Below the pieces are notes generated by a model. It did no database searches. It saw only the letters and a list, made by a program, of their open reading frames with translations, and was not told the DNA's origin. From a bacterium (lineage in GTDB: Bacteria > Patescibacteriota > Dojkabacteria > GCA-016699595), in contig CP064982.1 of the NCBI GenBank assembly GCA_016699595.1, positions 572,340 through 636,339 on the forward strand: 64,000 nt of DNA, written 5' to 3'. Position numbers and translations under genes: made by a program. This document shows, one piece after another, positions 9,925 to 63,478 of this stretch (the stretch's first letter is position 1; each line of letters starts with the position of its first letter).

Positions 9925-11148
9925 ATGACATACACAAAAAACTTCATAAAAACAAAAAAAGAAATAAGTTCAGAAATCGAATCAAAAAATGCACAGCTCT
10001 TGATCAAAGGTGGATTCATCAGACCTCAAATGGCTGGAGTATATATTTATCTCCCACTTGGACTTAGAGTTTTGGAAAAAATTACAAATGTTGTTCGCAA
10101 ACATATGGACGAAATAGCTAGTGAAATGCGAATGACAGCACTACAACCAAGAGATATTTGGGAGAAAACAAATCGACTTGATACTGTAGATGTACTTATG
10201 AAAACAATTGGAGCAAATGAAGTTTCAAAACAAAAGTCTACAAACGAATATATACTTGGATGCACACACGAAGATGTATTGACAAATATGCTTACCGAGT
10301 TTGTCCAAGGTGAATCTGAACTTCCAATATATGTTTACCAAATCCAAAATAAATTTCGAAATGAAGCAAGAGCAAAATCTGGACTTATGCGCGGAAGAGA
10401 ATTTCTGATGAAAGATCTATACTCATTTCATACGACTTACGAGGATTTGATGAGATACTATGAGATCGTCAAACAAAAATACATAGATATATTTGAAGAG
10501 CTTGGAATTGGAAACGATACATTTGTAACATTAGCTTCGGGAGGAGATTTTACAGATAACTTTTCTCATGAATTTCAAATGATTCTTGAAAGTGGAGAAG
10601 ATGAGATACTTATTGATAGAACGAATAAAATTGCCTATAATCTTGAAATTCTCGACGAGAACAAGGCAAAAAAAGTTGATCTGGAAAATGCAAACAAACT
10701 TGGAGTTGATTTTTCAAAGCTAGAAAAGGTCAAGGCCTCTGAAGTGGGAAACATATTTCCAAATGAAACTAAGTACTCAAAACTACTTAATCTATCATAT
10801 ACAAATTCAGATGGCGTGAAAAAATACGTTCACATGGGAAGTTATGGCATCGGAGTCTCAAGACTTATGGGTGTGATTGCAGAGAAATTCCATGATCCAA
10901 AAGGACTTACTTGGCCAGAGAATGTAGCCCCTTTCAAGTATCATATATGTACACTCGCAAAATCCGAATCTGAACTTTGTTTCCAGAATGCAAGAAAGTT
11001 TTATGTTGAGCATGAAACAGAGTCTCTTTGGGATGATAGATTTGATACTGCAGCTGGAGAAAAATTTGCAGATGCTGATCTAATTGGATGTCCAGTGCGA
11101 ATTGTCTTCTCTGAAAGAAATCCTGACGGAGAATTTACAAAAAGATAA
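9925..11148 (+). CDS. proS: prolyl-tRNA synthetase, minimal form without the INS editing domain
   Basis: LLIKGGFIRPQMAGVYIYLPLGLRVLEKI start; class II motifs FRNEARAKSGLMRGREFLMKD and YVHMGSYGIGVSRLMGVIAE; C-terminal KFADADLIGCPVRIVF. Only 407 aa. Confidence 0.85.
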   Translation: MTYTKNFIKTKKEISSEIESKNAQLLIKGGFIRPQMAGVYIYLPLGLRVLEKITNVVRKHMDEIASEMRMTALQPRDIWEKTNRLDTVDVLMKTIGANEVSKQKSTNEYILGCTHEDVLTNMLTEFVQGESELPIYVYQIQNKFRNEARAKSGLMRGREFLMKDLYSFHTTYEDLMRYYEIVKQKYIDIFEELGIGNDTFVTLASGGDFTDNFSHEFQMILESGEDEILIDRTNKIAYNLEILDENKAKKVDLENANKLGVDFSKLEKVKASEVGNIFPNETKYSKLLNLSYTNSDGVKKYVHMGSYGIGVSRLMGVIAEKFHDPKGLTWPENVAPFKYHICTLAKSESELCFQNARKFYVEHETESLWDDRFDTAAGEKFADADLIGCPVRIVFSERNPDGEFTKR

Positions 11149-11639: not shown

Positions 11640-14600
11640 TTATTTCACATCTGCTATTGTTTGGAAAGATTTCTCAAGTTGAACCAATCTTTCTTCAAGA
11701 TCATGGATTTTTTGATCTTGTTTCTCAATTTTCTCTTCTGTATTGAGAACTTTGGATACAAGCACTTTGAAACTTGATTGCCCGTTAGCTAAAGTATCAA
11801 TTTGAACTTGTTGTTCTTGGACTGCATTTATCAAAGCATATATAATCGCATTTGAATCATACCTGTAGTAACCATCTTCTCCAAGACTAATCGTCCATTG
11901 GCCTAGTGCTGTTTGATTGATGTCTTGAGCTATAAGTCCAACATAACTTTTGTCATTATCTGGTGCATATATACTTTTGCCATTATATTTAAATGTCTTT
12001 GGATCAATTTTCATAATAGCATCTAGACCTATATCAAAATCTTTGATATCCTTTTTCAACCTTTCGTCAGACAAAACAGTCCAAGCACCTCCTCCAATTT
12101 TTTCTGCTGTTCCTGCACTTCCTACAAATCTTGCTACTTGAGTTCCATCTACAAAGAAGTTTAGCTCAGCATCAGCTAATGATGTGATTCCAGAGTCTGT
12201 ATCGCCTATACCATTGGCACCAAATACAATTCCAGATGTTTGTGAAGAACCTGAAACTATAGAACCTCCAGCTAATTGCAATGCTCCTTCTATCTTTGCA
12301 GATCCTGATACATGCAGCTTTTGTGTAGGTGAGGTAGTGCCTATACCAACATTGCCCATAATGTAAGAACTATTTGTGCCATTCACATGTAGTATGCCCT
12401 TTATATAGGAATCTCCAGCAGTACCATCTACTTCAAATTTGAGTACACCATCGTTTCCATAAAAAGCCCAACCTTGTGTTGCAGGAGAGACCCATACATC
12501 CGTATATCGACTAATGCCATCGAAATGTGTCATTATTGGCATAGAAGTTACATAATGATTTGCATCAACAATATATAATTTGGAATTTAGCGATAGCCTA
12601 ACATCTCCCATGACATCCAATTTGTAACTAGGTGTTGTCCCAATTCCGACTCTACTATTGACATCATCATAGTAAAGACTAGAGTTAGACTTCCATACAC
12701 TTGTATTTGCGTCATAATATAGTGTTTGTCCTTCAGTTGCTGTAGGTAGTGTTGGTATCGTTGTCCATGCTGTTCCAGTACCTGTTGTTTTAAGGTATTG
12801 TCCATTTGTACCTGCTACATTACTTGAATCATACAACGCTCCTTCTACCCTTGCAGATCCTGATACATGCAGCTTTTGTGTAGGTGAAGGAGTCCCTATA
12901 CCGACAGAACCGGTGCTTATATTTGTATTGACACCATTTATACCTGTCCCAAAAATCAAGTTACCTATACTAAGCTGATTTGATCCATCCAATATTGGGG
13001 CATCTATATTATATCCAATTAATATATTCCTAGAACCAGTAGTTTCTAACCTACCTGTAAAGTATCCAAGAAATACATTGTCGGCACCGCTTGTCAAAGT
13101 TTTTCCATTCATATAACCTATTAATGTATTGTTTCCACCTGTAGTCAAAGATAACCCTGATTGATATCCGACTAAAGTAGTATTACTGAAAGTTGATAAA
13201 CTATCTGTACCCCTGCCTGACTGAAGTCCAATTGCCACATTTACTTGACCAGTAGTAAATCTCAAAGCTTCACCACCTATTGCCGTATTATTTCCACCTG
13301 TAGTTTTAAGTAATGTATAATGACCTATAGCCACATTATTGTTTGTAGCACTGGAGTTATTGTACATTGCACCATTGCCGATTGCTATAGTATCAGTTAT
13401 AGTGGTAGACGATCCGAACAATACATTTGCACCGATTGCCACATTTCCAGTACCAGTTTTAACTGAGCTCAAGGCATTATAGCCTATTGCAGTGTTGATA
13501 TAACCAGTAGTGATCGATGTACCAGTATTATTTCCCATCAAAACGTTGAACTTGCCAAAACTACCTCCTGTCAGCGTCGTGCTATCCCCTGCATTATTCC
13601 CTGCAAAGAGATTCGATGCGTCATTAGATGTAATCTCAAGAAGTGCAATGCCTGCGCTATCTTGAAATTGCATCAAAGCCTTGTCTACGGTTTGAGTGGC
13701 ACTTGCTTTTATAATTACTTGCTCAATATTTTCATTTCCTGCTACGAGTAACTTAGCCCCTGGTGTCGGTGTCCCAATTCCGACTCTACTATTTACATCA
13801 TCATAGTAAAGACCAGAGTTAGACTTCCATACACTTGTATTTGCATCAAAATATAGTGTTTGTCCTTCATTTGCTGTAGGTAACAAAGATACTCCTGGAG
13901 CTAATACAGTCCAAGCTGTACCATTTCCAGTACTACTTAAGAACTGTCCATTTGTACCTGCTACATTACTTGAATCATACAATGCTCCTTCGATCCTTAC
14001 AGATCCTGATACATGCAGCTTCTGTGTAGGTGACGGAGTCCCTATACCAACAAAACCGGTGCCCGAGAAGGTTAAGCTATTGGTATTCAGATTTATATCT
14101 GTATTCTTCGTAAGATTCCCTCCTAGTTGGAAGTTAGATAGCGTAGATTGCGTTAAACCATTGTCAGAAGTGTACTTTGTATCTATATCAGCAACACACT
14201 CAAAACTAGATCCATTCCAAGAAAGTTTTTGATCTGATAAACAAACAGGTGAATCTACAGAAATAGTTCCAGTAGATGATATAGGTCCACCAGTAAGCCC
14301 AACTCCTGTAGAGAGACTTGTCAATGTGCCATTAGTTGTATTACTACATATCCAAGAGCTCGTCGTTAAGTCATATCTAAGAATCTGAGTATCACTGCAA
14401 GAATTTAGTGAGTATCTTACAGTATTTACTGCTATTACTTCAGCTTTTAGTGGACCTACTGCCGAGAAAGTAACCATTGAGCCTGGATTTATATTTTGTG
14501 AATTTGAGCCGTCAGTTACGACAAAATAACTATCCTCACAATCAAAACTTACTCCGCTCCATGTAAGCCTTTGGTTTGTTGCGCATGTATGTGCATCAAT

Positions 14601-16574
14601 TTGAAATGTAGTTCCAATCAAACTTACTCCATTTCCTGCATTATATGTAGTATCATTATCTGGTAATGTAATAGTATAAGTTGAACTATCTGACATAGTC
14701 AAATTCAAAGTTCTTAAAGTTCCACCAGATGTAACTGCACTTGTTGAAATCGTTGCAGAAGACAAAAACTTATCTGCCGGTAGCATTATAGAATTTACTA
14801 TGGAGTGACCATTTGTTCCAGTTATGGCTAATGTTCTAGTTTGAGAGTCATAGCTCAAATTTTGTGAATCTGCATCAATTATACTTTTCGATAAACTAGG
14901 AGTGCCATTCTGTCCCGTTAAATTGATTGTATGAGTGATTGCCCCAGTACCAGAATCTTGAATAGTCAAATCATCACTATATTTATCAAAATCATTAAAT
15001 GAAGTGCATGCCCATGAACTTGAATTGTATATTAAAAATTCTCCATTTGAACATGGGTTCAATGTAACTATAGGATTTTGCCCATTACTTACACCTATCA
15101 CACCTGAACCTGTAACTGACAATGTACCTGCATTCGAAATCTCATTTGATGAATCTATCCCAATACCATTACCTGCACTATAAATATACTTTGATTCAGG
15201 AATGCATACCCAATTTGAACCGTTGTACACGAGAAGTTCACTTGTGCTACAAGCTTTGAGACTAAAAACATTCGAGTTTAATGTTATACCATCACCAGAA
15301 GCATAGGTTGTATCGGCATCAAGATCTAGGGAACAAATCCAATCACTTCCATCATACTTCAATATCTCTCCACTTGAGCAAGGCTTAATAGAAAATACAT
15401 TTGAAGATAAAATTAAACCTGAACCAGAAGTGTAAATATCATTATCATCAGGAATATTTAGAGCAATATCAGGCAATCCTCCTGAACGAGTTAATGTCAA
15501 AATCCTATAACCTGATTGCAATTCAGACAAAGTAGCTCCTGTCAAATATAACTCTGCAGGCAATGCCGGCAGTATTATCGAACCACCATTTGTCAATGAG
15601 ACAATGTTTCCATCAATTGTTAATTCCTGTGAATCTGTAGGAATAATAACTGAATTTCCACTCGATAATGTCAAAGTGCCATTATTATAGTTTAGGCTTT
15701 GCAAAACTTGATTTGGCAAAACTATAGAATTGCCATTTGATATAGTTATTGTATTGCCAATAATTTTCAAATCTTGACTATCTTTGCTAAATTTCAAAAT
15801 CATATTTGCAAGGTCGAGTTGATTCCCTCTTTCAATGCTTAAATTTGAACCTTCTAAGCTGATCTTTTGATTGTCACTAGCAAAAGCGGCTTCTACCTCT
15901 GCGCCTTGCAGATAACTTCTAATAACGCTTTCTAGAAACTCCGTTCTTTGTTGAATCAAGTCGCTTTTCTCGTCATTACTCAAGAATTTACCTACAGACA
16001 AATCTTGAATCAAATTGAGATTTGATTTTGTACCGATAAATTCACTGTACACTATATCTTTGCATCCAAGCGATGTTGGGTAAAATGAAATATCATTTTG
16101 AGTACCAAAAAATCCTTTCAAATTTGCAATAAATCCTTGTTGAATAAGCCTACGACTGCAAGCAACATTGTCAAATGTGCCTTTTGCATCATCGTGTCCT
16201 TGACATGATGAAACTTCGTTTCCATCTTCAGACATGGTTGAATAGCAGAGCTGCAAGTATGACTTTTTTGGCAAAGCAAAGATACCCGGATTAATGTTTA
16301 TATCAAATTTACCATTCCTGATTTCAACATTATCAAAATCCCAACTTTCTATTAGTCTTGCATCGGAAGAATTTTTATCAAATACTAAGATTCTGAAATT
16401 GGTTGCTTTTGTTTTATCGTTTCCAAAGTCACCATTAATCGTTACTTTGAGTGGTTTTGCAAAAGTTAATAAAAAAAAGATTGCTACTAGTAGAGCAAGA
16501 AGCAATAATTTAACAGAAAGGCGACTTCTCGCATTTGCAATATTCAATTTTTTTGAATTAATATAGTTTGCCAA
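11640..16574 (-). CDS. giant (1644 aa) tail-fibre-like surface protein with a C-terminal S74-type intramolecular-chaperone domain
   Basis: N-terminal signal/TM segment LSVKLLLLALLVAIFFLLTFA. Three VGIGTPSPTQKLHVSGS-(R/K)-EGAL modules. Seven or more CxxxxLxYxGSxWxC repeats. Gly/Asn/Thr-rich beta-helix-like tracts. C-terminal SDERLKKDIKDFDIGLDAIMKIDPKTFKYNG...VGLIAQDINQ...GYYRYDSNAIIYALINAV matches the peptidase S74 / endosialidase chaperone domain, and is followed by a coiled-coil tail. Confidence 0.8.
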   Translation of the reverse strand: MANYINSKKLNIANARSRLSVKLLLLALLVAIFFLLTFAKPLKVTINGDFGNDKTKATNFRILVFDKNSSDARLIESWDFDNVEIRNGKFDININPGIFALPKKSYLQLCYSTMSEDGNEVSSCQGHDDAKGTFDNVACSRRLIQQGFIANLKGFFGTQNDISFYPTSLGCKDIVYSEFIGTKSNLNLIQDLSVGKFLSNDEKSDLIQQRTEFLESVIRSYLQGAEVEAAFASDNQKISLEGSNLSIERGNQLDLANMILKFSKDSQDLKIIGNTITISNGNSIVLPNQVLQSLNYNNGTLTLSSGNSVIIPTDSQELTIDGNIVSLTNGGSIILPALPAELYLTGATLSELQSGYRILTLTRSGGLPDIALNIPDDNDIYTSGSGLILSSNVFSIKPCSSGEILKYDGSDWICSLDLDADTTYASGDGITLNSNVFSLKACSTSELLVYNGSNWVCIPESKYIYSAGNGIGIDSSNEISNAGTLSVTGSGVIGVSNGQNPIVTLNPCSNGEFLIYNSSSWACTSFNDFDKYSDDLTIQDSGTGAITHTINLTGQNGTPSLSKSIIDADSQNLSYDSQTRTLAITGTNGHSIVNSIMLPADKFLSSATISTSAVTSGGTLRTLNLTMSDSSTYTITLPDNDTTYNAGNGVSLIGTTFQIDAHTCATNQRLTWSGVSFDCEDSYFVVTDGSNSQNINPGSMVTFSAVGPLKAEVIAVNTVRYSLNSCSDTQILRYDLTTSSWICSNTTNGTLTSLSTGVGLTGGPISSTGTISVDSPVCLSDQKLSWNGSSFECVADIDTKYTSDNGLTQSTLSNFQLGGNLTKNTDINLNTNSLTFSGTGFVGIGTPSPTQKLHVSGSVRIEGALYDSSNVAGTNGQFLSSTGNGTAWTVLAPGVSLLPTANEGQTLYFDANTSVWKSNSGLYYDDVNSRVGIGTPTPGAKLLVAGNENIEQVIIKASATQTVDKALMQFQDSAGIALLEITSNDASNLFAGNNAGDSTTLTGGSFGKFNVLMGNNTGTSITTGYINTAIGYNALSSVKTGTGNVAIGANVLFGSSTTITDTIAIGNGAMYNNSSATNNNVAIGHYTLLKTTGGNNTAIGGEALRFTTGQVNVAIGLQSGRGTDSLSTFSNTTLVGYQSGLSLTTGGNNTLIGYMNGKTLTSGADNVFLGYFTGRLETTGSRNILIGYNIDAPILDGSNQLSIGNLIFGTGINGVNTNISTGSVGIGTPSPTQKLHVSGSARVEGALYDSSNVAGTNGQYLKTTGTGTAWTTIPTLPTATEGQTLYYDANTSVWKSNSSLYYDDVNSRVGIGTTPSYKLDVMGDVRLSLNSKLYIVDANHYVTSMPIMTHFDGISRYTDVWVSPATQGWAFYGNDGVLKFEVDGTAGDSYIKGILHVNGTNSSYIMGNVGIGTTSPTQKLHVSGSAKIEGALQLAGGSIVSGSSQTSGIVFGANGIGDTDSGITSLADAELNFFVDGTQVARFVGSAGTAEKIGGGAWTVLSDERLKKDIKDFDIGLDAIMKIDPKTFKYNGKSIYAPDNDKSYVGLIAQDINQTALGQWTISLGEDGYYRYDSNAIIYALINAVQEQQVQIDTLANGQSSFKVLVSKVLNTEEKIEKQDQKIHDLEERLVQLEKSFQTIADVK

Positions 16575-16668: not shown

Positions 16669-17352
16669 ATGCAAGTTCAAATTGATTCATCCTGGAGAGA
16701 AATACTTCAAAATGAATTTGAAAAAACATATTTCAAAAAATTAGTTGAAAAGGTAAAGAACGAATATAGTCATTTTGAAATATTTCCAGAACCAAGAAGG
16801 ATATTTCGCGCATTCAACCTAGTTCCATTTGACAGAGTAAAAGTTGTAATTTTAGGGCAAGATCCTTATCATACTCCAGGAGTTGCAGATGGTTTGGCAT
16901 TTTCTAGTAAGTTCGGAAACAAAGTTCCGCCAAGCTTGACTAATATCTATAAAGAAATCCGTAATGAATTTAACTTTGAAAATTACAAGAATAAAAACAA
17001 TCCTGATCTAACCAGGTGGGCTACTCAAGGAGTCTTTTTGTTGAATAACAGTTTAACTGTAAAGTCTGGCATTGCAAACTCGCACTCTCAAATCGGTTGG
17101 AATATTTTTACTGATGCAGTTATAAGAGCCCTTGCAAGTAATAGAAACAACCTAGTTTTCATGCTTTGGGGAAACTTTGCCAAAAGTAAAAAAGAAATTA
17201 TACTTACAAACTCTGGAAGTAATCCTCATTTAATTTTGGAATCTGCTCATCCTTCCCCTTTTTCAGCAAACAATGGATTTTTTGGTAATAATCATTTCAA
17301 AAAGTGTAATGAATTTTTGAAACTTCATCATGAAACTGAAATTCAATGGTAA
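16669..17352 (+). CDS. ung: uracil-DNA glycosylase, family 1
   Basis: VKVVILGQDPYHTPGVADGLAFS (water-activating loop), LLNNSLTV, LVFMLWGNFA and HPSPFSANNGFFG are all canonical UNG motifs. Confidence 0.9.
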   Translation: MQVQIDSSWREILQNEFEKTYFKKLVEKVKNEYSHFEIFPEPRRIFRAFNLVPFDRVKVVILGQDPYHTPGVADGLAFSSKFGNKVPPSLTNIYKEIRNEFNFENYKNKNNPDLTRWATQGVFLLNNSLTVKSGIANSHSQIGWNIFTDAVIRALASNRNNLVFMLWGNFAKSKKEIILTNSGSNPHLILESAHPSPFSANNGFFGNNHFKKCNEFLKLHHETEIQW

Positions 17353-17353
17353 A

Positions 17354-17818
17354 ATGAGACCCATGCTTCCAAAGTCAAACCGGATCAAAACTGAAAAAGA
17401 ATTTAAGCAAGTATTTCGAAATTCAAAAAAGATTGAAACAGAGCATTTCAAAATATTTATACAAATTGTAGAAGCTTATCATGATAAGCCTAGAATTAAT
17501 ATCCAAAAAATTAAGTCAATGTATGATGAATCTGGAAAATTTGTTGGAAATGTAAGTGAGTCTCAATCGAATAATGAACCAAGTAAAAATTTAGTTAAAC
17601 CAAATCAAATTGGAAAACTTGGAGTAATAATTTCTGCAAAATTTGGCAAAGCTCATGATAGAAATAAATGTAAAAGAAGAATTAGGAATTTGTTGAATCA
17701 CTATGTGAAAGAAAATGCTGTGAATATAGTAGTTCAGGTGAAAAGTAACATAAAAGATTTTGAATTTGAGAAATTGAAAGCGGAATTAGATATTATTCTC
17801 AAGCAGCCTACCAATTAA
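17354..17818 (+). CDS. rnpA: ribonuclease P protein component
   Basis: MLPKSNRIKTEKEFKQVFRNSKK and GVIISAKFGKAHDRNKCKRRIRNLL match the RnpA RNR/K-rich signature. The ATG at 17354 is preferred (track lists 17330). There is an ~50-aa insertion relative to typical RnpA. Confidence 0.7.
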   Translation: MRPMLPKSNRIKTEKEFKQVFRNSKKIETEHFKIFIQIVEAYHDKPRINIQKIKSMYDESGKFVGNVSESQSNNEPSKNLVKPNQIGKLGVIISAKFGKAHDRNKCKRRIRNLLNHYVKENAVNIVVQVKSNIKDFEFEKLKAELDIILKQPTN

Positions 17819-23510: not shown

Positions 23511-25592
23511 ATGTCAACATTTTCAGATCTCAAAAACAAATTTATATACTTCTGGCAGTCAAAAGGCGCAAAAGAGATACCAGGATTATCGCTTGTTCCA
23601 CAAGGTGATTCTACTTTACTTTTTGTCAATTCTGGTATGTTTCCACTTGTGCCATACTTACTTGGAGAAAAACATCCACTCGGAACTAGACTTTGCAATG
23701 TCCAGAGATGCCTTAGAACTGAAGATCTTGAAGATATCGGAGATACAAGACATTTAACCTTGTTTCATATGATCGGAAATTGGAGTTTAGGAGATTTTTT
23801 CAAAAAAGAACAAATACCGTTTGTACTTGAGCTTTATGTTGAGCATTTTGGACTTGATCCAAAACGAATATATGTTTCAGTTTTTGAAGGTGACGAGTCA
23901 GCTCGAAGAGACGAAGAATCTATCGAGCTTTGGAAGCAAGCTTTTGCAAAATATGGAGTAGTTGCAGAGTATAATCCAGATCCATATTCAATCTCAGAAA
24001 CTCTAGAGGGAAATGCAAACTTTAGAATATTTAGTTATCCCAAAAAGAAAAATTGGTGGACAAGAGGTGAAGTTGCTGGAGAACCTGGAGGTCCAGATAG
24101 TGAAACATTTTATGATATGGGAACTCAAGCTGAAGAATATGAAGAGAAATTACATATAAATGGAGATAATGGGAGATTTGTAGAAATTGGAAACAATGTT
24201 TTCATGCAGTATAAATATGAAGTCCCCATTGCTAAGGGGGATACGGCAACGCCGAGTGGGTTTTGGTTAGAAATGCATAAGAAAAATGTAGACTTCGGAG
24301 GTGGTTTGGATAGAATTGTGATGTGCGCAGAAAACAAGTTTGATATATTTGAAACTACACTTTATTGTGAAGTTATCGATTATCTAGTTACTAAAACTGG
24401 TATTCCGTATAAAACTACTTCCTTTGTGAAGGTGGCACAAGGTGACGGAAGAGGTTTTAAGCGAAGTTATAGAATAATTGCAGATCATATAAAAGCTTCA
24501 GTTTTCCTACTTGCTGACGGAGTTTTCCCAAGTAACAAAGATCAAGGCTATATCCTGCGAAGATTAATTCGTAGAATGATAGTACAAGGTTATAATCTTG
24601 GAATTAAAGATAAGTTTGTGAAAGAAATTGCCGAGATAATGATAGGTTTGAACTCAGATCAAGATCAAATTATTTCAAATAAAACCAATATAATTTTAGA
24701 ACTTGAAAAAGAAGAAGATAAATTTAGGGTGACATTAGAAAGTGGAATAAAAGAATTTGAAAAATTGATCCTTCCTTTTAGGAAGGGGAACCACAAAGTG
24801 GTGGAAGGTTTAAATCCAAATATTGCTCTCTTACAAACGAATACTAACGAAATAGGATTCTCTGGAAAAGACTTATTCTATCTTTATGAGTCTTTCGGGT
24901 TTCCAATTGAGCAAAGTTTAGAATTATTGAAACAAAACAATGTTGATTTTGATGAAAGTAAGTTGAAAAGCGAGTTTGATAATGCAAAACTAGAACATTC
25001 CAATTTATCACGCACTAATTCTGAGCAAAAATTCAAAGGTGGACTTGCAGACAATTCAGAGATTGTAACTGCACTCCACACTACTCACCATCTTTTACTC
25101 GCTGCACTTCAAAAAGTTTTATGCTCAAAAGATATACACCAAAAAGGTAGTAATATAACTTCTGAAAGACTTCGAATTGATTTCAATTTCGATAGAAAAT
25201 TAACTACAGAAGAATTAGCAAAAATAGAATCCCAAGTTCAAGAGTGGATTGATCAAGGATTACAAGTTGAAAGACTAGAAATGAAAAAAGAAGAAGCAGA
25301 GAAACTTGGTGCAGAGCATGAGTTTGGAGCTAAGTATCCAGATATGGTTTCAGTTTATAAAATATTTTATCCTTCCTGGAAGGAAGGTGTCACTCAAAGC
25401 CCGACGGAAGGTTTAACCTCCAGTCTTTCAGACAGCCTCCTACAAGGAGGCATCATAAGTCTTGAGTTTTGTGGCGGTCCTCATGTCGCAAATTCAAAAG
25501 ATATAGCTAAATTTGGAAGTTTCAAAGTTTTGAAAGAAGAAGCAAGTTCATCTGGAATTAGAAGAATAAAGGCTGGATTGGTTAGGCAGTAA
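23511..25592 (+). CDS. alaS: alanyl-tRNA synthetase lacking the C-Ala domain
   Basis: LVPQGDSTLLFVNSGM, RCLRTEDLEDIGDTRHLTLFHMIGNWSLGDFFK, editing-domain HTTHHLLLAALQKV, and C-terminal CGGPHVANSKDIAKFGSFKV. 693 aa. Confidence 0.9.
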   Translation: MSTFSDLKNKFIYFWQSKGAKEIPGLSLVPQGDSTLLFVNSGMFPLVPYLLGEKHPLGTRLCNVQRCLRTEDLEDIGDTRHLTLFHMIGNWSLGDFFKKEQIPFVLELYVEHFGLDPKRIYVSVFEGDESARRDEESIELWKQAFAKYGVVAEYNPDPYSISETLEGNANFRIFSYPKKKNWWTRGEVAGEPGGPDSETFYDMGTQAEEYEEKLHINGDNGRFVEIGNNVFMQYKYEVPIAKGDTATPSGFWLEMHKKNVDFGGGLDRIVMCAENKFDIFETTLYCEVIDYLVTKTGIPYKTTSFVKVAQGDGRGFKRSYRIIADHIKASVFLLADGVFPSNKDQGYILRRLIRRMIVQGYNLGIKDKFVKEIAEIMIGLNSDQDQIISNKTNIILELEKEEDKFRVTLESGIKEFEKLILPFRKGNHKVVEGLNPNIALLQTNTNEIGFSGKDLFYLYESFGFPIEQSLELLKQNNVDFDESKLKSEFDNAKLEHSNLSRTNSEQKFKGGLADNSEIVTALHTTHHLLLAALQKVLCSKDIHQKGSNITSERLRIDFNFDRKLTTEELAKIESQVQEWIDQGLQVERLEMKKEEAEKLGAEHEFGAKYPDMVSVYKIFYPSWKEGVTQSPTEGLTSSLSDSLLQGGIISLEFCGGPHVANSKDIAKFGSFKVLKEEASSSGIRRIKAGLVRQ
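24768..24812. repeat. copy 3 of a ~65-bp hairpin repeat family, in-frame inside alaS
   Basis: atccttcctttt-aggaagg-ggaaccac-aaa-gtggtggaaggttt: ccttcc/ggaagg arms plus an inner hairpin. It encodes LPFRKGNHKVVEGLN within the intact alaS ORF. Confidence 0.6.
25369..25434. repeat. copy 1 of the same repeat family, in-frame inside alaS
   Basis: atccttcctggaaggaaggtgtcactcaaagcccgacggaaggtttaacctccagtctttcagac. It shares atccttcct..aggaaggtgtc..caaag..gacggaaggtt..cagtcttt with the 33776 copy, and encodes YPSWKEGVTQSPTEGLTSSLSD. Confidence 0.65.
25510..25592 (+). repeat. direct repeat A (the native alaS 3' end)
   Basis: aatttggaagtttcaaagttttgaaagaagaagcaagttcatctggaattagaagaataaaggctggattggttaggcagtaa reappears at 27422-27503 with 4-6 mismatches. 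Confidence 0.8.
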
Positions 25593-25614: not shown

Positions 25615-26529
25615 ATGTCAATTCCAACACATTTACAAATAATGTTGCCTTTATTGAAGTTATATTCAGACAACAATATCCACCATAGAACAGATTTTAT
25701 AGATAAAATTTCTGATCATTTTAACTTAACCGATGATGAGAGAAAACAAAAAGTAAATTCAGGTTGGACAAGAATATCTGATAGAGTTGATTGGGCAATA
25801 ACATTCTTAAAATCAGCTAAATTAGTTGAATCACCTAAAAGGGGATATACAAAAATTACACGACGTGGAAAAGAATTATTAAAAACTGGAGTTGAATCTT
25901 TAGACTTAAATAAAATAAAGGAATTATATCCAGATGTTATGGAAACTGCCTTTTGGAATCCAGAACTAAGAACTTCAACAAATGCTACTGCTACAAATAT
26001 AAATAATGAAAACTATACACCTGACGAACATTTAGCTCAAATAGTTGAACAAAAGAAACTTACAATTTATGCAGAAATTGAAGATCAGATCAAAAGAATT
26101 TCTCCCAAAGCATTTGAAAAATTAGTTGTAAAATTATTAATTGCTATGGGTTATGGAACTGAGGAATTTAGTCAAGTTACTCAATATAGTAACGATGGTG
26201 GTATTGATGGAATAATCCAAGCAGATAAACTTGGTTTTAGAAAAATTTATGTACAAGCCAAAAGATATTTAAGCAACAATGTTGGAAGAACTGAACTTCA
26301 AAATTTTGTAGGTGCAATGGGTAAAGTTCACGAAGGAATCTTTATAACTACATCAAAGTTTAATAGTAATGCACTAGAGTATATCCGTGACATTTCGCAA
26401 AAAGTTATTTTGATTGATATAAACAAACTTGTTGAACTAATGCATGAATACAACCAAGGTGTTTCTGTTCGAGATAATATTGAAATAAAAGGAATAGATG
26501 GGGATTACTTTGATGAACTTGAATCATAG
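25615..26529 (+). CDS. mrr: Mrr-family type IV (modification-dependent) restriction endonuclease
   Basis: N-terminal winged-helix Mrr_N-like region. Catalytic core AFEKLVVKLLIAMGYG...SNDGGIDGIIQADKLGFRKIYVQAKRYLSNNVGRTELQNFVGAM...GIFITTSKF matches Mrr_cat (D-x-QAK). Confidence 0.8.
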   Translation: MSIPTHLQIMLPLLKLYSDNNIHHRTDFIDKISDHFNLTDDERKQKVNSGWTRISDRVDWAITFLKSAKLVESPKRGYTKITRRGKELLKTGVESLDLNKIKELYPDVMETAFWNPELRTSTNATATNINNENYTPDEHLAQIVEQKKLTIYAEIEDQIKRISPKAFEKLVVKLLIAMGYGTEEFSQVTQYSNDGGIDGIIQADKLGFRKIYVQAKRYLSNNVGRTELQNFVGAMGKVHEGIFITTSKFNSNALEYIRDISQKVILIDINKLVELMHEYNQGVSVRDNIEIKGIDGDYFDELES

Positions 26530-26644
26530 TCATGGCTCTACCTTGCCACCTTCACCTACGGACTTAGCGAAATTACCGAAATTGGCCTAAATCGATTTTT
26601 GCAAAATTATAAAGTTAATTCAGTTCAAGCTGATCATATAATTT

Positions 26645-27361
26645 TTGAATCTTCTAAATCGATTGATAAATAATCTAAATCAAGTTAATTCAAAGTCAAT
26701 ACTACTTAAAAAGACTTTCAGAATATATCTTAGTATTGATACTCAAACTGTTAGTAAGCCAAATTTTCAAAGTCTTGCTGAAAACTATTTTTCTAAAGCA
26801 ACAAAGATGAAAATTCACCGCACTTTACCAGAAACTGAATTTTGGTTTATAGAAAAGCAGTGCCACGCTTATATTGCTCAGAAAATTAGTAAAAAGCAAG
26901 ATTATCAAGATAAAAATGCAAAAGGGTAACTTTGAGAAGAGCTTTGCGTAATGATGAATTTGCTTGCAGACCTAAAACGAAGTGATAAAGTTTTGGATCC
27001 CTTTTCAGGAAGCGGTGCGATAACTGAAGTAACTTACAAATATTTTAAGGTTGAATATATTACTTCAATTGATATAAAACAAGGAACCGAACAGGACTTC
27101 TTCAAGTTAGATGAAAATCAAAAATTTGATAAGATCATAACTGATCCACCTTGGGGAAATGAACAAAAACTAGATAATGTAAGTAAGTTTTATAATGATT
27201 TATTTAACAAAACTAAAAAAATGTTAAATAATCAAGGTGAATTGATACTACTAACAAGTTTTAAGGTTAATAATATGCCAGATGAATTTGCGAAATTAAA
27301 AGAATATAATCTATCAGTTTCTGGCAAGAAAGCAAAATTGTATAAATTTAAATTAAAATAA
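26645..27361 (+). pseudogene. SAM-dependent (N6-adenine/N4-cytosine or UPF0020-type) methyltransferase interrupted by two in-frame stops
   Basis: The 26645-26929 and 26951-27361 ORFs are in the same frame, separated by ...GGG TAA CTT TGA... The downstream part carries motif I VLDPFSGSGA and motif IV DPPWG. Together they read as one methyltransferase split at 26929-26951. Confidence 0.5.
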
Positions 27362-27421: not shown

Positions 27422-27503
27422 AATTTGGAAGTTTCAAAATTTTGAAAGAAGAAGCAAGTTCATCTGGAATTAGAAGAATAAAAGCTGGTTTGGTTAGATA
27501 GAT
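27422..27503 (+). repeat. direct repeat B (duplicated alaS 3'-end remnant)
   Basis: aatttggaagtttcaaaattttgaaagaagaagcaagttcatctggaattagaagaataaaagctggtttggttagatag. It would encode FGSFKILKEEASSSGIRRIKAGLVR*. Confidence 0.8.
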
Positions 27504-28036: not shown

Positions 28037-29515
28037 ATGAAAAAACTATACATTACTACAACCCTACCATATGTCAACGCAGAACCTCATATAGCTCATG
28101 CTATAGAGTTTGTCTTAGCTGATGCTATAGCACGCTACTACAAAGCAAGACTTAGTGACGATAATGTGTATTTCAATGTCGGAACGGATGAACACGGTCA
28201 AAAAATTTGGGATAAATCAAAATCAGAAAACCTTGACATACACGAATTTACCAAAAAATATTCGGATAGATTCAAAGAATTTTGCACAAGTTTTGATGTT
28301 GAATACTCTTTTTTTTATAGAACTAGCAAGGACTACCATTATCCAGTTGCTACTGCATTTTGGAATGAAGCGATGAAAAATGGAGATATTTACAAAAAGA
28401 AGTACAAGGGACTATATTGCGTTGGCTGTGAAAGTTTCAAACTAGACAAAGACTTGATAGATGGGAAATGTCCAGATCATGGGACAGAACCCATTGAACT
28501 TGAAGAAGAGAACTATTTTTTCAAACTTACAAAATATAGAGAACACATTGCAGATTATCTCCAAACTGAATTTGTCATACCTGAATCTGATAGAAAGTTT
28601 GCTCAAGAATTTATCAAAAACATCGAAGATATAAGTATTTCAAGAGACAAAGCTAAGTTAAGTTGGGGAATTCCTGTTCCCGGAGATGATACACAAGTTA
28701 TGTATGTTTGGTTTGATGCATTGTCAAATTATCTCGGATCACTATACTTTGGTTCAAAAAGTATAGATGATCACTTTGATATAACCGATGTCAGGGATTT
28801 GCGAGAAGAATTCTACTTTTTACAGCTTTGTGGAGCCGATAATGTAAGATTTCAAGCAATTATCTGGCAAGCGATGTTGATATCAAGTAAGATAAAATTC
28901 ACTGACAAACTCCTGGTTCATTCATGGATCTTAGGATCTGATGGTCGCAAAATGAGCAAAACTCTTGGCAATGTCATCTCTCCATTTGAACAACTTGAAA
29001 AGTATGGGAGTGAGGCAGTAAGATTTTTCTTCCTAGCCTGCATGAGTACAACTGGAAATGCAATTTATGATGAAGCAGGTTTTGTAGATCAGTTCAATTC
29101 TAGAGTTGCTGACAATTACGGTAATTTGCTTAATAGGGTGATTGTTCTGATAGTCAAAAACAATATCAAGACAAGTAATGTGACTAATGATAATTCAGCT
29201 ATATTGAATGAAGTAAATCAACTAAAAAATAGAGCTGAGCAAAAATTTGAAGAGTACAATATCTTTGAATATTCAGTGATCATCAATGACATTGCTACCT
29301 TGGTGAATAAGTATGTAACTGAAACTGAACCATGGAAGAAGGAGAAACCACAAGAATTCAAAACTGACGTCTTACTCAATTGCTTCAAAGCACTAAAAAT
29401 TATTACTGAACTATACAAACCCATAATTCCCAAAACTACCGCAAAAGCTGCATATATCCTTGAAAGCCTAAAGCCAGAGATTTTGGTTGCAAAAATTGCA
29501 AGAGATGAAAATTAG
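28037..29515 (+). CDS. metG: methionyl-tRNA synthetase (core enzyme, no C-terminal tRNA-binding appendix)
   Basis: YITTTLPYVNAEPHIAHAIEF (HIGH-type), zinc knuckle CVGCESF...CPDHG, KMSKTLGNVI (KMSKS). Confidence 0.9.
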   Translation: MKKLYITTTLPYVNAEPHIAHAIEFVLADAIARYYKARLSDDNVYFNVGTDEHGQKIWDKSKSENLDIHEFTKKYSDRFKEFCTSFDVEYSFFYRTSKDYHYPVATAFWNEAMKNGDIYKKKYKGLYCVGCESFKLDKDLIDGKCPDHGTEPIELEEENYFFKLTKYREHIADYLQTEFVIPESDRKFAQEFIKNIEDISISRDKAKLSWGIPVPGDDTQVMYVWFDALSNYLGSLYFGSKSIDDHFDITDVRDLREEFYFLQLCGADNVRFQAIIWQAMLISSKIKFTDKLLVHSWILGSDGRKMSKTLGNVISPFEQLEKYGSEAVRFFFLACMSTTGNAIYDEAGFVDQFNSRVADNYGNLLNRVIVLIVKNNIKTSNVTNDNSAILNEVNQLKNRAEQKFEEYNIFEYSVIINDIATLVNKYVTETEPWKKEKPQEFKTDVLLNCFKALKIITELYKPIIPKTTAKAAYILESLKPEILVAKIARDEN

Positions 29516-32331: not shown

Positions 32332-33708
32332 TTAATAATTCTTTCTTCTTTCATCCCAAAATTTACCTCGTCTGCAAAGTTTAGCTTTGTCTTCAGGATT
32401 TGCAAGTAATTGTTCAACTACAATCTCAGTGAAAATTGTATTTTGCGAGCCCTTAACGAGAATCACTAGCTTTTTGTCTTTCAAAACAACTCTATGTTGC
32501 AAGTAATCAATCAAACTATTTGCAAGTTCACTAGCTTTTTCAAAGGTATGTATCTTAGCCTTTTCAAAACCAAGGTCGATTAGCTTAGTTGAAAAGTAAT
32601 TTTTCATCTCTGGTCCAACTAAATAATATTCGTCTGCAACTTGATTGCTAAATGCAAACTCGGCCAAACTAGTGTGTTCGAGTTTTGAACTGCTTCCAAG
32701 TTCTCGCATATCGCCTAAAACTCCAATTTTGTAACTATTTTCGACATGACAATACTTCAATAATTCAAGTAAATCCATACAAGGTTCTTTTGAGCTATTG
32801 TAACTTGAATCTATCAGTGTAGAGTTTTTGAACCCATCAAATATCGAACATCTTCCCGGTTCAAGATGAAAGTTAGTTATCAAGTTATTCTCAATTTCAA
32901 GATCGGTTAGATTAAACAATTTTCCAACTTCATGAGCAATTTTGAAAGTTATATCATAATGTTTTGGGTAAATTTGATCGCCAAGTTTGATAAAGTGAAT
33001 CTGATTATCTTGTGAAACCTCTATAACTTTGCACTTTGCAAGTTTCTTTGAATTAGCAACTCTTTGGTCAGACATATTCAAAATCACAACTCCCGTTTCA
33101 GAAATTGAACTGATAAGCAAACTTTTATCTTTTGCAATTGCATCTTCAACTTTATTTTTGTAACTTTCATCAGATTCATTAAATCTCTCAATTTGAGTTT
33201 CATAATTACTACTATGAACTGCATTTATATTGAGATATATTGCAATATCTGGAACCACAATTCTCAACAAATATTTCATATTTTTAGGTTCTTCTATTGC
33301 ATCAACTCCCATTTCCACTATATAAATATCGTACTTTTGCCAGTTTGTGATAAGTTTAAAAATTACTAAAGCTGCAATTTTGAACCATTCAAAAATAGAA
33401 TATTCCTCTGGTGGCTGAATTCCCAAAATGTCTAAAGGAATTCCAGTTTCTGAATTTGCTTTGTAACTATATTTAACTTTAAAGTTAGTCTTCAATACTG
33501 CATAAAGTGCATCCATTGTGGAAGTCTTTCCAGCAGAACCTGAAATCCCAATTATTTTTAAATTCTTACTTAATAACTTGTATTTTTTAAGTTGCAATTT
33601 TGCAATTATTCGAATGTAGGTTAGGAATGATTTTTCAAAAAATTTCTTCATACTTTCAATTTTATCATTTTGTATTACAGTATTCAGCAACGAATACTCT
33701 TCTTGCAT
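32332..33708 (-). CDS. Mur ligase family protein (MurF-like)
   Basis: P-loop IIGISGSAGKTSTMDAL, then KANSETGIPLDILGI (compare MurF NNEIGVPLTLL). 458 aa. Confidence 0.6.
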   Translation of the reverse strand: MQEEYSLLNTVIQNDKIESMKKFFEKSFLTYIRIIAKLQLKKYKLLSKNLKIIGISGSAGKTSTMDALYAVLKTNFKVKYSYKANSETGIPLDILGIQPPEEYSIFEWFKIAALVIFKLITNWQKYDIYIVEMGVDAIEEPKNMKYLLRIVVPDIAIYLNINAVHSSNYETQIERFNESDESYKNKVEDAIAKDKSLLISSISETGVVILNMSDQRVANSKKLAKCKVIEVSQDNQIHFIKLGDQIYPKHYDITFKIAHEVGKLFNLTDLEIENNLITNFHLEPGRCSIFDGFKNSTLIDSSYNSSKEPCMDLLELLKYCHVENSYKIGVLGDMRELGSSSKLEHTSLAEFAFSNQVADEYYLVGPEMKNYFSTKLIDLGFEKAKIHTFEKASELANSLIDYLQHRVVLKDKKLVILVKGSQNTIFTEIVVEQLLANPEDKAKLCRRGKFWDERRKNY

Positions 33709-33775: not shown

Positions 33776-33846
33776 ATCCTTCCTCATAGGAAGGTGTCTC
33801 ACAAAGTGAGACGGAAGGTTATATCAATATCAGTCTTTACTGAACT
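33776..33846. repeat. copy 2 of the ~65-bp hairpin repeat family, intergenic upstream of hisS
   Basis: atccttcctcat-aggaagg-t-gtctcac-aaa-gtgagac-ggaaggtt...cagtctttac forms two perfect 7-bp hairpins. It is preceded by the inverted repeat cgtgtaa-tcgatagg-ttacacg at 33732-33753. Confidence 0.65.
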
Positions 33847-33897: not shown

Positions 33898-35154
33898 ATG
33901 TCCAACGCCATAATTACAAATCAACCACCTAAAGGAACCTATGATTGGTTGCCTGAAGAGTTTAAAGTTCGTAAATATATCTTTGATACTTGGAGAGAAG
34001 TTTGCACTTCGTTTGGTTATCAAGAATACTTAACTCCGCTTCTAGAGTATGCAGATATTTATAGAGTAAAATCTGGAGAAGATGTAGGTGGGAAAGAACT
34101 TACAATTATCACAGATCGAGGAGGTCGTGAATTAGCATTGCGTCCCGAAATGACTCCAAGTGTAACTCGCTTAGTTACAAAAATTTATAAAGAAACTGCA
34201 AAACCAATTCGGCTATTTTCAATTGCAAATTTTTATAGAAATCAAGCTCCACAAAAAGGAAGAAATAGAGAATTTTGGCAGTTGAATTTTGATATTTTTG
34301 GAACACATTCGATAAATGCTGATATTGAAATTATTCAAGTAGGAATTGAAATAATGAAAAAGTTTAAATCAAGTGAAGATATGTTTGAAGTTAGACTGAA
34401 TGATCGCAAAATAATTGATTATATTTTATCTCAAGTAACCGAAGATTGTGAAAAGAAAATTGAGTTGGTGAGACTTATGGATAAATATTTAAAATTGACA
34501 GATATGGAGTTTAAAGAAGAACTTGATAAGTTAGATATCGGGGATTTAGACATAATAACAGATTTCTTAAAGTCAAAATCACTTAGTGAACTTAATGTTC
34601 CAAATGAAATTAAATCTAATTTAAATCAAGTCATCACTAAATTAACCCAATTGGGTTTTGGAAACTTTTTGAAGTTTGACCCAACAATGATTCGTGGCTT
34701 TGACTACTACGATGGAACTATATTTGAATTTTTTGATAAAAATTCCGAAAATACTCGCTCCCTTTTTGGAGGTGGTAGATACAACGGACTTGCAAAGATA
34801 TTTGGATTAGATGATATTCCTGCAGTTGGAATGGCACCTGGAGATGAACCTATGAAGCTATTTTTGACTTCTTGGAACTTACTTCCAGATTTTGGGAAAG
34901 ATAACAAAACAGTTTATATGCCTATGTTGGTTGAAAATGTTGAAGTTTTGAATAAATTTAAAAATCATTTAGTACAGGAAGGTTACTCAGTAACTTCAGG
35001 TTTGGAAATTGAAAAAATGTCTGGAAGTATGTTTGCTAAAGCTGAAAAACTTGGGTTCAAGTTTGTTGCAATTGTTGGAGAAGATGAAATTAAAGAAAGT
35101 AATTTTGTTCTGAAAAATTTAAAAACGAGAGAAGAAAGTAAAATTAAAATTTAG
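33898..35154 (+). CDS. hisS: histidyl-tRNA synthetase
   Basis: PKGTYDWLPEEF..., RPEMTPSVTRLV (motif 2 region), RLFSIANFYRNQAPQKGRNREFWQLNFDIFG, GGGRYNGL (motif 3). Confidence 0.9.
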   Translation: MSNAIITNQPPKGTYDWLPEEFKVRKYIFDTWREVCTSFGYQEYLTPLLEYADIYRVKSGEDVGGKELTIITDRGGRELALRPEMTPSVTRLVTKIYKETAKPIRLFSIANFYRNQAPQKGRNREFWQLNFDIFGTHSINADIEIIQVGIEIMKKFKSSEDMFEVRLNDRKIIDYILSQVTEDCEKKIELVRLMDKYLKLTDMEFKEELDKLDIGDLDIITDFLKSKSLSELNVPNEIKSNLNQVITKLTQLGFGNFLKFDPTMIRGFDYYDGTIFEFFDKNSENTRSLFGGGRYNGLAKIFGLDDIPAVGMAPGDEPMKLFLTSWNLLPDFGKDNKTVYMPMLVENVEVLNKFKNHLVQEGYSVTSGLEIEKMSGSMFAKAEKLGFKFVAIVGEDEIKESNFVLKNLKTREESKIKI

Positions 35155-58964: not shown

Positions 58965-59414
58965 TTATTTAATATCATGTTTTACTATCATAGAAGTCTT
59001 AGCTATTTCCCACTTATTCTCTTTTACCCAATTTTCTGCTTGATTTACTACATTTGATAGTCCATCAAAGAACCCTTGTCCGCTAAAATCATTTGCATTT
59101 ATTGGGTCTACCACATACACATAGTCATTCTGTGTTCCTCCTTCAACTGGATCTATACTTAGAAATCTTCCTAAGTTTGGTACATATACTCTCGCTCCCA
59201 TTGTGATGAACTGTACACTGAAGTCTCTCTCAGTTCGTCTTAGTGCTGATCCACCATACTCATACTTGTCTGTACTTATTGTTACAGTTTCTCCAAATGG
59301 TCCATATCTATACATACTTCCACTTTCTTTTGATAGCAGGTGTCCCGTACTTGTATAGATACTATAGTCACTCGTTTGTTTCAGTGTCAAGAGTATTCCT
59401 CCTGGAAAACTCAC
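58965..59414 (-). CDS. RHS/YD-repeat C-terminal fragment (module 0) with a short tail
   Basis: YRYGPFGE (YD repeat), then ...[42 protein letters not shown], which is the RHS repeat-associated core terminus (compare RYYDPxxGRFxSxDPIGLxGGxNLYxY..NP.NxxDPxGL). A 35-aa C-terminal tail follows. Confidence 0.65.
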
Positions 59415-59449
59415 ATAACGATCGACTATGTTACCGCTTGTGTTTATTT

Positions 59450-59869
59450 TTAAACAATCCCAATGAACTTCTTAACAGATAACATGAGTTCATTTTGTTT
59501 CCTCTTATCTTGTTTCAGATGTTCCATTAATTCAGTCTCAGACATGTTATTAGCAAATTCAGTTATAATTTTATTTATTGCTGTCAACACATTAGCATTA
59601 ACCTGTTCAACACTCAATTTATCTGCATCAATATGTCCCTTTTCTTCAATGGAGACCCTATAGAAAATATCAAATTTTGAATTTGTCAAGGAAACGTTTA
59701 AAAATTTATATCCCCAATTTATGTAATAAATATTACCATATACTGATTTTTGTAGATTAATTATTTGACAAATTTGACCTAAGTTTTTATACCAATAATT
59801 ACCGTTTCTCTTGAATCCACAAGGTATCAATAAACAAGTTATTAATTTATTTATTTCAGTTTTTATCAT
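59450..59869 (-). CDS. putative immunity protein for toxin module 1
   Basis: 139-aa ORF immediately downstream of the module-1 toxin. Confidence 0.45.
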
Positions 59870-59881
59870 TGTGTTGTGAAA

Positions 59882-60520
59882 TTAATATAGATCCAATACT
59901 GTATTCCATTCTGATCCGGTTTGTGCTTCAAAAATAGATTGATAGTTATTTAATTGATTTATTCCTCTGGTTATTGACCACGGATTGTTTGGTTTTAGTT
60001 CAAAGATAGTCCTTGTATTAAAATCCACGAAATCAGGGCGTATACCTTGGATGCCTCTATATTCTTTATATAAACCTGCATCTGGATTATTTAGACCAAC
60101 CTTATATTCTAAATGCATTTGTTGTCCCCTTTGTAACGATGACTGTGTGTAACCTTCTGAAGATCCAGAATTGGATCCAATGTTTACTCCACTCCTCTGT
60201 TGACTATTATTTTTTTTCGTATTGCAACTTTTCAGAATATTGCATCCATCACCTATACTCTTTGCTACCCCTGCTGTTCCTGTCGCTGTTGTTGCTGCTG
60301 CATTTGTGTTAGATATTGCGTTTGATATTGACCTAACACTAGAATCTATTAACTGACCAGTTGTACGCACCATTTGTTTTCCGTGTGTAGTTTGTGTCAG
60401 GTATACTCCGCCAATAACGACAGCTGCTACTATTACAACTGGAGCAATAGCTATGCCAAAAATGACTATTGCAGCTTGTCCACTAAAGTCATTCCCATTC
60501 ACAGGATCAACTGGGTACAC
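59882..60520 (-). CDS. orphan RHS C-terminal toxin module 1 (putative PD-(D/E)xK nuclease tip)
   Basis: Starts inside the RHS core end (YPVDPVNGNDFSGQ). It continues with the conserved TM/pre-toxin block AAIVIFGIAIAPVVIVAAVVIGGVYL...GTAGVAKSIGDGCNILKSCNTKK, then a unique tail containing RPDFVDFNTRTIFELKP (D...E-x-K). Confidence 0.6.
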   Translation of the reverse strand: MYPVDPVNGNDFSGQAAIVIFGIAIAPVVIVAAVVIGGVYLTQTTHGKQMVRTTGQLIDSSVRSISNAISNTNAAATTATGTAGVAKSIGDGCNILKSCNTKKNNSQQRSGVNIGSNSGSSEGYTQSSLQRGQQMHLEYKVGLNNPDAGLYKEYRGIQGIRPDFVDFNTRTIFELKPNNPWSITRGINQLNNYQSIFEAQTGSEWNTVLDLY

Positions 60521-60575
60521 ATAGTCATTCTGTGTTCCTCCTTCAACTGGATCTATACTTAGAAATCTTCAATCA
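60189..60575. repeat. ~385-bp homology block (copy 1) shared by the toxin modules
   Basis: Near-identical to 61767-62135 and 63788-64000. Its last ~60 bp also match 59113-59172. Confidence 0.85.
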
Positions 60576-60632
60576 AGCCTATTATGATATATAGTGTTTA
60601 TTATAAGTCGGCACCACCCTTGTCGGTAAGTT

Positions 60633-60923: not shown

Positions 60924-61157
60924 AATTTGTATGAATTTTTTCGAATATACAAAGGTTATTGCACTCCTATATGAATCAAATCTCCCCAGTCCCGACCGCT
61001 CTTAAGATCAAAGATCATATCTTCCGGTGGTTCAATCTTTCTATAATAGATATCATCACTTTCCATTAATTATTTCCTTCTCGATAAAGTCAATTGTATT
61101 TCTGAGTTTTTGAGTTTTCCATGTAATAGATATATTCTCATTTATCAATTGCAAACA

Positions 61158-61466: not shown

Positions 61467-61474
61467 GATAATAA

Positions 61475-63476: not shown

Positions 63477-63478
63477 AA

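Follow-up and report, generated by a model that had tools for sequence, protein, structure and literature searches.

Short palindromic repeats, likely a lineage-restricted family, lie in frame in the alaS gene of a Dojkabacteria genome

Intragenic, in-frame palindromic repeats have been established for two groups of elements, the Rickettsia palindromic elements (RPEs; PMC10969869) and the GTAG- or CGTC-tagged repetitive extragenic palindromes (REPs; PMC3733652). Ten families of RPEs are known, and RPEs are found in frame in Rickettsia genes (PMC10969869). According to the accounts of Ogata et al. (2000, 2002) given in PMC10969869 and PMC3733652, RPE-1 as first reported was ~100-150 bp long and had a conserved peptide in one frame. 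The tagged REPs have been observed as a single copy and a dimer within one gene, with dimers coding for 20-30 aa (PMC3733652). The best-documented cases of in-frame selfish DNA within genes come from Rickettsia and from a few proteobacteria rich in REPs. The case described here is of this kind, in an apparently Patescibacteria-like genome that is very small and AT-rich, and the double-hairpin element of 42 nt seems to be unrelated. The element is found in alaS, the gene for alanyl-tRNA synthetase (AlaRS), and upstream of hisS, in a 64,000-nt stretch of the Dojkabacteria assembly GCA_016699595.1 (contig CP064982.1, positions 572,340 to 636,339). This whole stretch is called the window below, and positions refer to it.

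The copies are best explained as a lineage-restricted family of short (~39-43 nt), non-autonomous interspersed palindromic repeats resembling REPs and RPEs, which are tolerated in frame in permissive loops, and we regard this explanation as likely. What is new is the sequence family; in-frame behavior of this sort has been described before, in Rickettsia and for REP elements. The window contains five units at four sites, three in alaS and one intergenic:

23511 to 25592, plus strand: alaS, an intact open reading frame (ORF) of 693 aa with tRNA-synt_2c and tRNA_SAD domains.
24416 to 24452, plus strand: C0, an old, decayed unit in alaS that codes for part of TTSFVKVAQGDGRGFK, found by DNA alignment with the closest relative.
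24768 to 24808, plus strand: C1, a unit of 41 nt with both hairpins intact, ATCCTTCC TTTTA GGAAGG GGA ACCAC AAA GTGGT GGAAGG.
24768 to 24839, plus strand: insertion footprint of C1, a net gain of 66 nt (22 aa) over the three closest orthologues.
25369 to 25411, plus strand: C2, a unit of 43 nt in alaS with hairpin A intact and hairpin B degenerate.
25417 to 25453, minus strand: C2', a diverged, inverted unit of 37 nt, ATGCCTCC TTGTA GGAGGC T GTCT GAA AGAC T GGAGG.
33776 to 33818, plus strand: C3, the cleanest unit, intergenic and found by the first pattern search.

A sequence-only reading of the window had reported a hairpin-forming repeat of ~65 bp inserted twice in alaS. Both copies were found where it placed them in the intact ORF, with the peptides it gave, and a third site in the same gene, C0, is to be added. 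The unit is shorter than was proposed, at 37-43 nt, since the empty site of a close relative described below sets one indel at 42 nt. The second copy, rightly located, was read as one repeat of 66 nt and proves to be the unit C2 followed by part of the inverted C2', which was recovered by profile search; the two form a tail-to-tail dimer of 85 nt with a net gain of 84 nt, or 28 aa. The reading also implied copies elsewhere, and these exist: C3 is intergenic, C0 lies in alaS, and two more are present in a related genome. The boundaries of the C1 footprint are ambiguous by ~6 nt, and the 25 nt after the C1 unit may be a decayed second unit or a duplicated flank. All in-gene copies are open in the alaS frame without a stop codon, and the element strand is the gene strand at all four sites.

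Seven units were compared, namely the five of the window and the two of the related assembly GCA_040364335.1, which are carried by its contigs L013 and L137. Their consensus layout is ATCCTTCC-N5-GGAAGG-T-(5-7 bp stem, AAA loop)-GGAAGG. The first hairpin (A) pairs CCTTCC with GGAAGG across a loop over 6-7 bp, being GCCTCC/GGAGGC in C2', and the second (B) has a stem of 4-7 bp and an A-rich triloop. The third box is again GGAAGG, which closes the unit with 6-bp inverted termini (CCTTCC and GGAAGG, present in five of seven units) and permits an alternative pairing with the 5' CCTTCC box. Pairing was judged from folds of each copy, as the MAFFT alignment of the seven units misplaces the gaps in stem B, and by these folds both hairpins are kept in five of the seven. 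Stem B exists in three sequence versions, GTC(TC)AC/GT(GA)GAC, ACCAC/GTGGT and GTCT/AGAC, which differ by paired changes or by paired 2-nt length changes; stem B of C1 is set apart from the other copies by such paired changes. Because the versions are connected in this way, they suggest that source copies need the hairpin. The sequence-only reading had placed an inner hairpin in both of its copies, which holds for C1 and not for C2. This hairpin is well formed in C1, C3 and C2' and degenerate in C2 and C0, older or in-gene copies that have lost stem B; the 17-nt stem-B region of C2 retains four of seven pairs by direct reading, and RNAfold keeps a 4-bp stem.

Such an arrangement is far from what chance would produce in this window. 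CCTTCC-N2-8-GGAAGG occurs three times (0.02 expected) and GGAAGG-N10-30-GGAAGG four times (0.01 expected). A three-box scan with up to three mismatches returns four loci and no others, as compared with 0.1 matches per shuffle, and full units reach nhmmer E-values of 7e-6 to 8e-11. Among the eight GC-rich perfect hairpins of the window, five belong to the repeat family. The units have a GC content of 49-52%, 14-17 points above that of alaS (35%), in a window of ~32% GC. C3, with the sequence ATCCTTCC TCATA GGAAGG T GTCTCAC AAA GTGAGAC GGAAGG, shows two adjacent hairpins and the strongest fold (z = -4.0 as RNA and -5.4 for a longer DNA stretch). It lies between a divergent Mur-ligase gene (32332 to 33708, minus strand) and hisS (33898 to 35154, plus strand), and two of its three forward frames contain stops. 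The 5' flanks are A/T-rich (TTCTAAA, AAAATTG, ATATTTT, TTATAT), and TTCT is found 0-4 nt upstream in some empty sites, in each case over four sites only. The chance of one of two further copies falling in alaS is P ~0.065 after allowing for ascertainment, so enrichment in this gene is suggestive only.

The copies within alaS are alike as DNA, yet their reading frames differ and the peptides they encode, LPFRKGNHKVVEGL, PSWKEGVTQSPTEGL and PSSGKVSQSDGRGS, are unrelated. C1 is read as ILPFRKGNHKVVEGL, C2 as YPSWKEGVTQSPTEGL and C0 as PSSGKVSQSDGRGS, and the frames differ at both ends of the unit: C0 and C2 have CCT-TCC (Pro-Ser), as opposed to CTT-CCT (Leu-Pro) in C1, and the 3' box is GAA-GGT in C1 and C2 as opposed to GGA-AG(G/A) in C0. 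Since the DNA is conserved while frames and peptides differ, the repeat is a DNA element and not a protein motif.

The product of the host gene has a class-II AlaRS core with the tRNA_SAD editing-domain signature and intact invariant residues at the catalytic and editing sites, and it is identical (100%) to the NCBI protein QQR93387.1, annotated as 'alanine--tRNA ligase'; the closest named homologues, from Candidatus Dojkabacteria and Doudnabacteria, are ~50% identical. Protein and codon alignments were made with the three closest AlaRS sequences, P0002 (BLASTP identity 76%, aligned identity 84%), P0003 (68%) and P0004 (64%); aligned identities of the closest orthologues range from 84% down to 69%. 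The C1 segment is absent from all three. The C2/C2' insertion is absent from P0002 and P0003, and P0004 carries an unrelated AT-rich insert at that position. C0 is common to P0002 only, with a shorter segment in P0003 and P0004. The proposal that these segments are insertions and not native sequence is thus upheld, with C1 and C2 missing from three close orthologues and C0 from two. The orthologue of C0 in the related genome (L013:891-929) is well preserved, ATTCCTTCC TCTG GGAAGG T GTCAC AAA GTGAC GGAAGG, and between the two genomes C0 has diverged at nearly the gene-wide rate (77% vs 80.5% nucleotide identity), which is what an inert passenger would show. Insertion has occurred repeatedly in this lineage, with presence and absence differing among relatives, and the copies were gained at different times.

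Other insertions are present in alaS as well. A fourth lineage-specific insert at 24223-24258 (residues ~239-249, VPIAKGDTATP), absent in the three close relatives, has 61% GC and a layout of two hairpins plus a box (TCCCC-N8-GGGGA, CGGC-AAC-GCCG, GTGGGTTTT); in sequence it does not resemble the repeat family, and it lacks a significant fold (z = -1.5). The alaS gene on L013 has a G-rich insert of its own (CCCC-N9-GGGG...) at another site, around PLEKGGQGG, and the two inserts may represent a second element family. At the 3' end of the gene, the last 76 nt of alaS (25510-25585) are repeated with 96% identity at 27422-27497, 1.9 kb downstream. Between these repeats (25615-27361) lie a gene for an Mrr-type restriction endonuclease (Mrr_N and Mrr_cat) and a truncated UPF0020/N6-methyltransferase ORF of 136 aa, compared with 302 aa in L013, where the gene order alaS-Mrr-methyltransferase is the same. 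This looks like a cassette integrated in the 3' end of alaS that rebuilt the end of the gene.

The site upstream of hisS supplies the only clean empty allele. A search with the histidyl-tRNA synthetase (HisRS) returned L136 (Logan SRR30164251, 95% identity), L137 (79%) and L138 (60%), the last from the same SRR20005815 relative as L014. In L136, both flanks of C3 are ~95% identical to the window in nucleotides and exactly 42 nt are missing: the junction reads ...TTTCTAAAG/TTATTTCAATATC... as opposed to ...CTTCTAAA (ATCCTTCC...GACGGAAG) GTTATATCAATATC... in the window, and no flank is duplicated beyond an ambiguity of 1-3 nt. In L137, the more distant relative, the site is filled by a unit of 39 nt whose stem B (GTCAC/GTGAC) is that of the other copy of its genome. 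So clean a difference between genomes ~95% identical shows that the unit was gained recently or lost precisely. If the relationships are ((window, L136), L137), there are two possible histories, a precise loss in the lineage of L136 and a double gain at one nucleotide. Either history points to an enzyme-mediated, sequence-selective process without target duplication. Just upstream of the L137 unit (2429-2467), at L137:2400-2428, there are partial copies of the 5' end (AACCTTCC AATA ATCCTTAA), which hint at repeated events at this site. The tail of C3 (TTATATCAATATCAGTCTTT) was considered as part of a longer element, having CAGTCTTT in common with the tail of C2 (p = 0.017), and was rejected, as the L136 empty site makes it native flank. 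No unit was found in 35 kb of the SRR20005815 relative (L014 and L138) or in L015, and the DNA flanking the window, 7.7 kb on its left side (L011) and L012 on its right, has none either.

Survival of the alaS copies is accounted for by the kept frame, the lack of a stop codon and their position in length-variable loops of AlaRS. An AlphaFold2 model based on 120 homologues (mean pLDDT 86, pTM 0.71) has five segments with pLDDT <50, and three of these, residues 306-313, 428-446 and 630-638, correspond to C0, C1 and C2. The inserts are modeled as coil between confidently predicted elements: C0 between the helices 286-296 and 315-335, C1 between the helices 391-425 and 452-462, and C2 between the strands 612-619 and 648-653. 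On alignment to solved AlaRS structures, C0 falls in a gap that separates the catalytic core from the helical domain and C1 in a gap ahead of the conserved YxTYGFP helix; the C2 site lies ahead of the CGGPH motif of the editing domain. The sites are the catalytic-to-helical junction, the tRNA-recognition linker and the beta-hairpin before the CGGPH zinc motif, and all three positions are length-variable among 15-120 AlaRS homologues. The inserts are probably translated as disordered loops and would be near-neutral passengers. The sequence-only reading had asked whether the inserted peptides are surface loops; the model shows low-confidence coil, and exposure at the surface may be presumed.

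As to mechanism, the element is probably moved by a hairpin-recognizing enzyme supplied in trans. An HUH/tyrosine transposase of the IS200/IS605-RAYT type, working on single strands by 'peel and paste', would fit better than a DDE transposase, because there is no duplication, the empty site is clean and the unit has a stem-loop architecture; the DDE-type mechanism of the miniature transposable elements with inverted repeats known as MITEs is disfavored because target duplication is missing. Several observations weigh against an interspersed family of this kind. That three of four sites lie in one gene is odd for a freely transposing element. About 72 kb of the 762-kb genome were read, and the copy counts cover that part only. 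Among the window ORFs scanned against Pfam, no transposase, recombinase or HUH domain was found. C1 and C2 are known from a single assembly, no gene with exactly this AlaRS product is present in the Logan assembly made from that sample, and translation of the inserts is assumed. Nor did the exact pattern retrieve a related copy from public collections, although this pattern is strict and misses the L013 copy.

The public searches covered GTDB representative genomes, JGI metagenomes and IMG/VR, with the host genome not among them. The exact pattern, ATCCTTCC-N5-GGAAGG-N10-30-GGAAGGTT, gave four hits among genome contigs, six among metagenome contigs and none among viral contigs; all of these hits are unrelated, differing from the family in architecture and GC content. 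A looser three-box pattern run on viral contigs gave chance matches among those listed, and none exceeded 14 bits on rescoring with a hidden Markov model, by which real units score 17-43 bits across searches. Rfam gave nothing relevant, either over the whole window at gathering thresholds or near C3 at permissive ones. By exact look-up, the AlaRS protein is not carried by any other assembly, a search with its C-terminal half found no close fragment of the 95% relative, and a literature search for repeats of this sort in Patescibacteria turned up no relevant paper.

An alternative possibility is that the palindrome spread without a transposase, propagating locally where neighboring copies recombine, undergo gene conversion or are joined by template switching. 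This route would use microhomology with CTTCC/GGAAGG-like boxes, and it is in keeping with three of the four sites lying within 1 kb of one another in one gene, with the failure to find a transposase in the window ORFs scanned, and with sequences like the element's 5' end on the flanks of the C1 site and ahead of the copy in L137. The right end GGAGGC of C2/C2' also coincides with ancestral GGAGAC/GGAAAC codons, and each genome has stem-B variants common to its own copies, as in concerted evolution. We nevertheless consider it unlikely: C3 is 8.4 kb distant, in an intergenic region that is unrelated and lacks flanking homology, microhomology at the L136 empty site is at most 1-3 nt, and units begin and end alike at all sites. 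A bolder reading is a single-strand hairpin transposon that selects its sites, excises precisely, moves at present in a bacterium resembling the candidate phyla radiation and prefers aminoacyl-tRNA synthetase (aaRS) loci, where its hairpins, instead of being junk, would form a regulatory or structural module under selection on the mRNA or DNA of alaS and hisS. To this we give a slim chance; if it were true, the refilled site upstream of hisS and the three alaS copies would reflect targeting and not chance.

In another explanation, the hairpins are a selected cis-regulatory DNA or RNA motif of aaRS genes, either protein-binding or acting on mRNA stability, and indeed all four sites are in or upstream of alaS and hisS on the gene strand, stem B is maintained by paired changes, and the copy upstream of hisS is present in two diverged genomes. 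That same copy, however, is absent in a 95%-identical relative whose flanks are otherwise conserved, and every copy is absent in two relatives at 64-68% AlaRS identity. The hairpins of C0 and C2 have decayed, with C0 changing at the gene-wide rate, and Rfam has no match. The association itself is weak, aaRS genes being four of ~60 in the window, and an inference from it is weakened further because all four lie within 25 kb, namely a class II tRNA-synt_2b gene (9925-11148), alaS, metS (28037-29515) and hisS; a regulatory role is accordingly very improbable. It is less probable still that the inserts are left untranslated, through a ribosome hop between GGAAGG boxes or through RNA processing. 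The GAAGGT boxes of C2 stand 24 nt apart, in frame, around a hairpin, a layout that we take loosely to recall the take-off and landing sites of programmed bypassing in T4 gene 60. However, no putative take-off site is followed by a stop codon, the boxes of C1 are 22 nt apart and out of frame, and all in-gene copies are open in frame, which would be needless if they were skipped, while C3 has stops. Finally, we give almost no credence to the view that the segments belong natively to AlaRS, or arose by duplication at the protein level, and that the hairpins are incidental. Other lineages do carry insertions of various lengths at the C1 and C2 positions, but the segments are absent in the closest orthologues, the same DNA is also intergenic (C3), the peptides differ since the frames differ, and the GC content is 14-17 points over that of the gene. 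A family of non-autonomous palindromic repeats is retained as the preferred explanation.

What this adds is a tidy example and not a new principle. One essential gene has logged events of different ages, a shared decayed copy and two lineage-specific insertions, and together with the nearby presence/absence polymorphism the alaS inserts form a compact record of palindromes lengthening protein loops. This is a plausible source for part of the loop-length variation of AlaRS in these lineages. For annotation, such inserts account for odd low-confidence loops, and they can break assemblies.

Elsewhere in the window, the RNase P protein ORF (17330-17818) encodes 162 aa, of which residues 13-159 cover positions 1-107 of the 109-position Pfam profile, and therefore has ~40 extra residues; MetRS and FtsW each match their profile in two pieces. 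Lineage-specific inserts may be common in the host genome, and none of these matches the alaS element. On the minus strand at 11640-16574, an ORF of 1644 aa ends in a C-terminal domain of the Peptidase_S74 (endosialidase chaperone) type and contains, from 12279 to 14062, internal repeats that are 73-154 nt long and 86-96% identical; its product resembles a tail-fiber or adhesin-like surface protein. Also on the minus strand, 58965-64000 is an array of near-identical repeats, which are 218-300 nt long, 99-100% identical and spaced by 1578 and 1998 nt, with a series of short ORFs, one of them with a Tox-REase-9 toxin domain and a neighbor with a weak WapI immunity-protein match in the Logan annotation, and it looks like a polymorphic-toxin cassette array.

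Among known elements, MITEs are similar in being small and non-autonomous, in having short terminal inverted repeats (here CCTTCC...GGAAGG) and in their capacity for in-frame fusions (PMC10969869). The present element differs from them in its size, which is under the usual 50-500 bp, and in the lack of a target-site duplication at C3. The IS200/IS605-derived palindrome-associated elements (PATEs) have no target-site duplication, a clean empty site, end stem-loops and copies on the same strand; they insert 3' of a conserved tetra- or pentanucleotide and have a cognate Y1/HUH transposase. The present element also has no target duplication, a clean empty site, stem-loops and same-strand copies, although its unit is far shorter than typical PATEs, and its four sites are too few to establish a conserved target tetranucleotide. 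With REPs (REPINs and BIMEs), it shares stem-loop repeats of 20-40 nt that occur as singles and inverted dimers, C2/C2' being a tail-to-tail dimer, as well as documented intragenic copies and no obvious target duplication. A REP, however, consists of one hairpin and an unpaired GTAG or CGTC tag, whereas two hairpins and a repeated box are found here without an unpaired tag. GTAG and CTAC do not occur in the six full units, GTAG appears once, internally, in the diverged C2', and GACG (CGTC on the other strand), present in five of seven units, has three of its bases paired in stem B. A RAYT gene flanked by units, as is associated with GTAG REPs, was not found among the window ORFs scanned. RPEs are likewise short palindromic repeats of a small, AT-rich genome; they enter housekeeping genes in frame where the protein fold is compatible with it, sometimes twice in one gene, and they also occur between genes. 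In-frame insertion at permissive sites of a housekeeping gene is seen here at three coil sites of alaS (pLDDT <50). The element is set apart from RPEs, by their descriptions, in that its unit of 37-43 nt and dimer of 85 nt contrast with the ~100-150 bp of RPE-1, two or more frames are used and no peptide is conserved, and its host belongs to another lineage. The sequence-only reading gave a fair description in saying that it appears to be analogous to the RPEs and yet an unrelated family.

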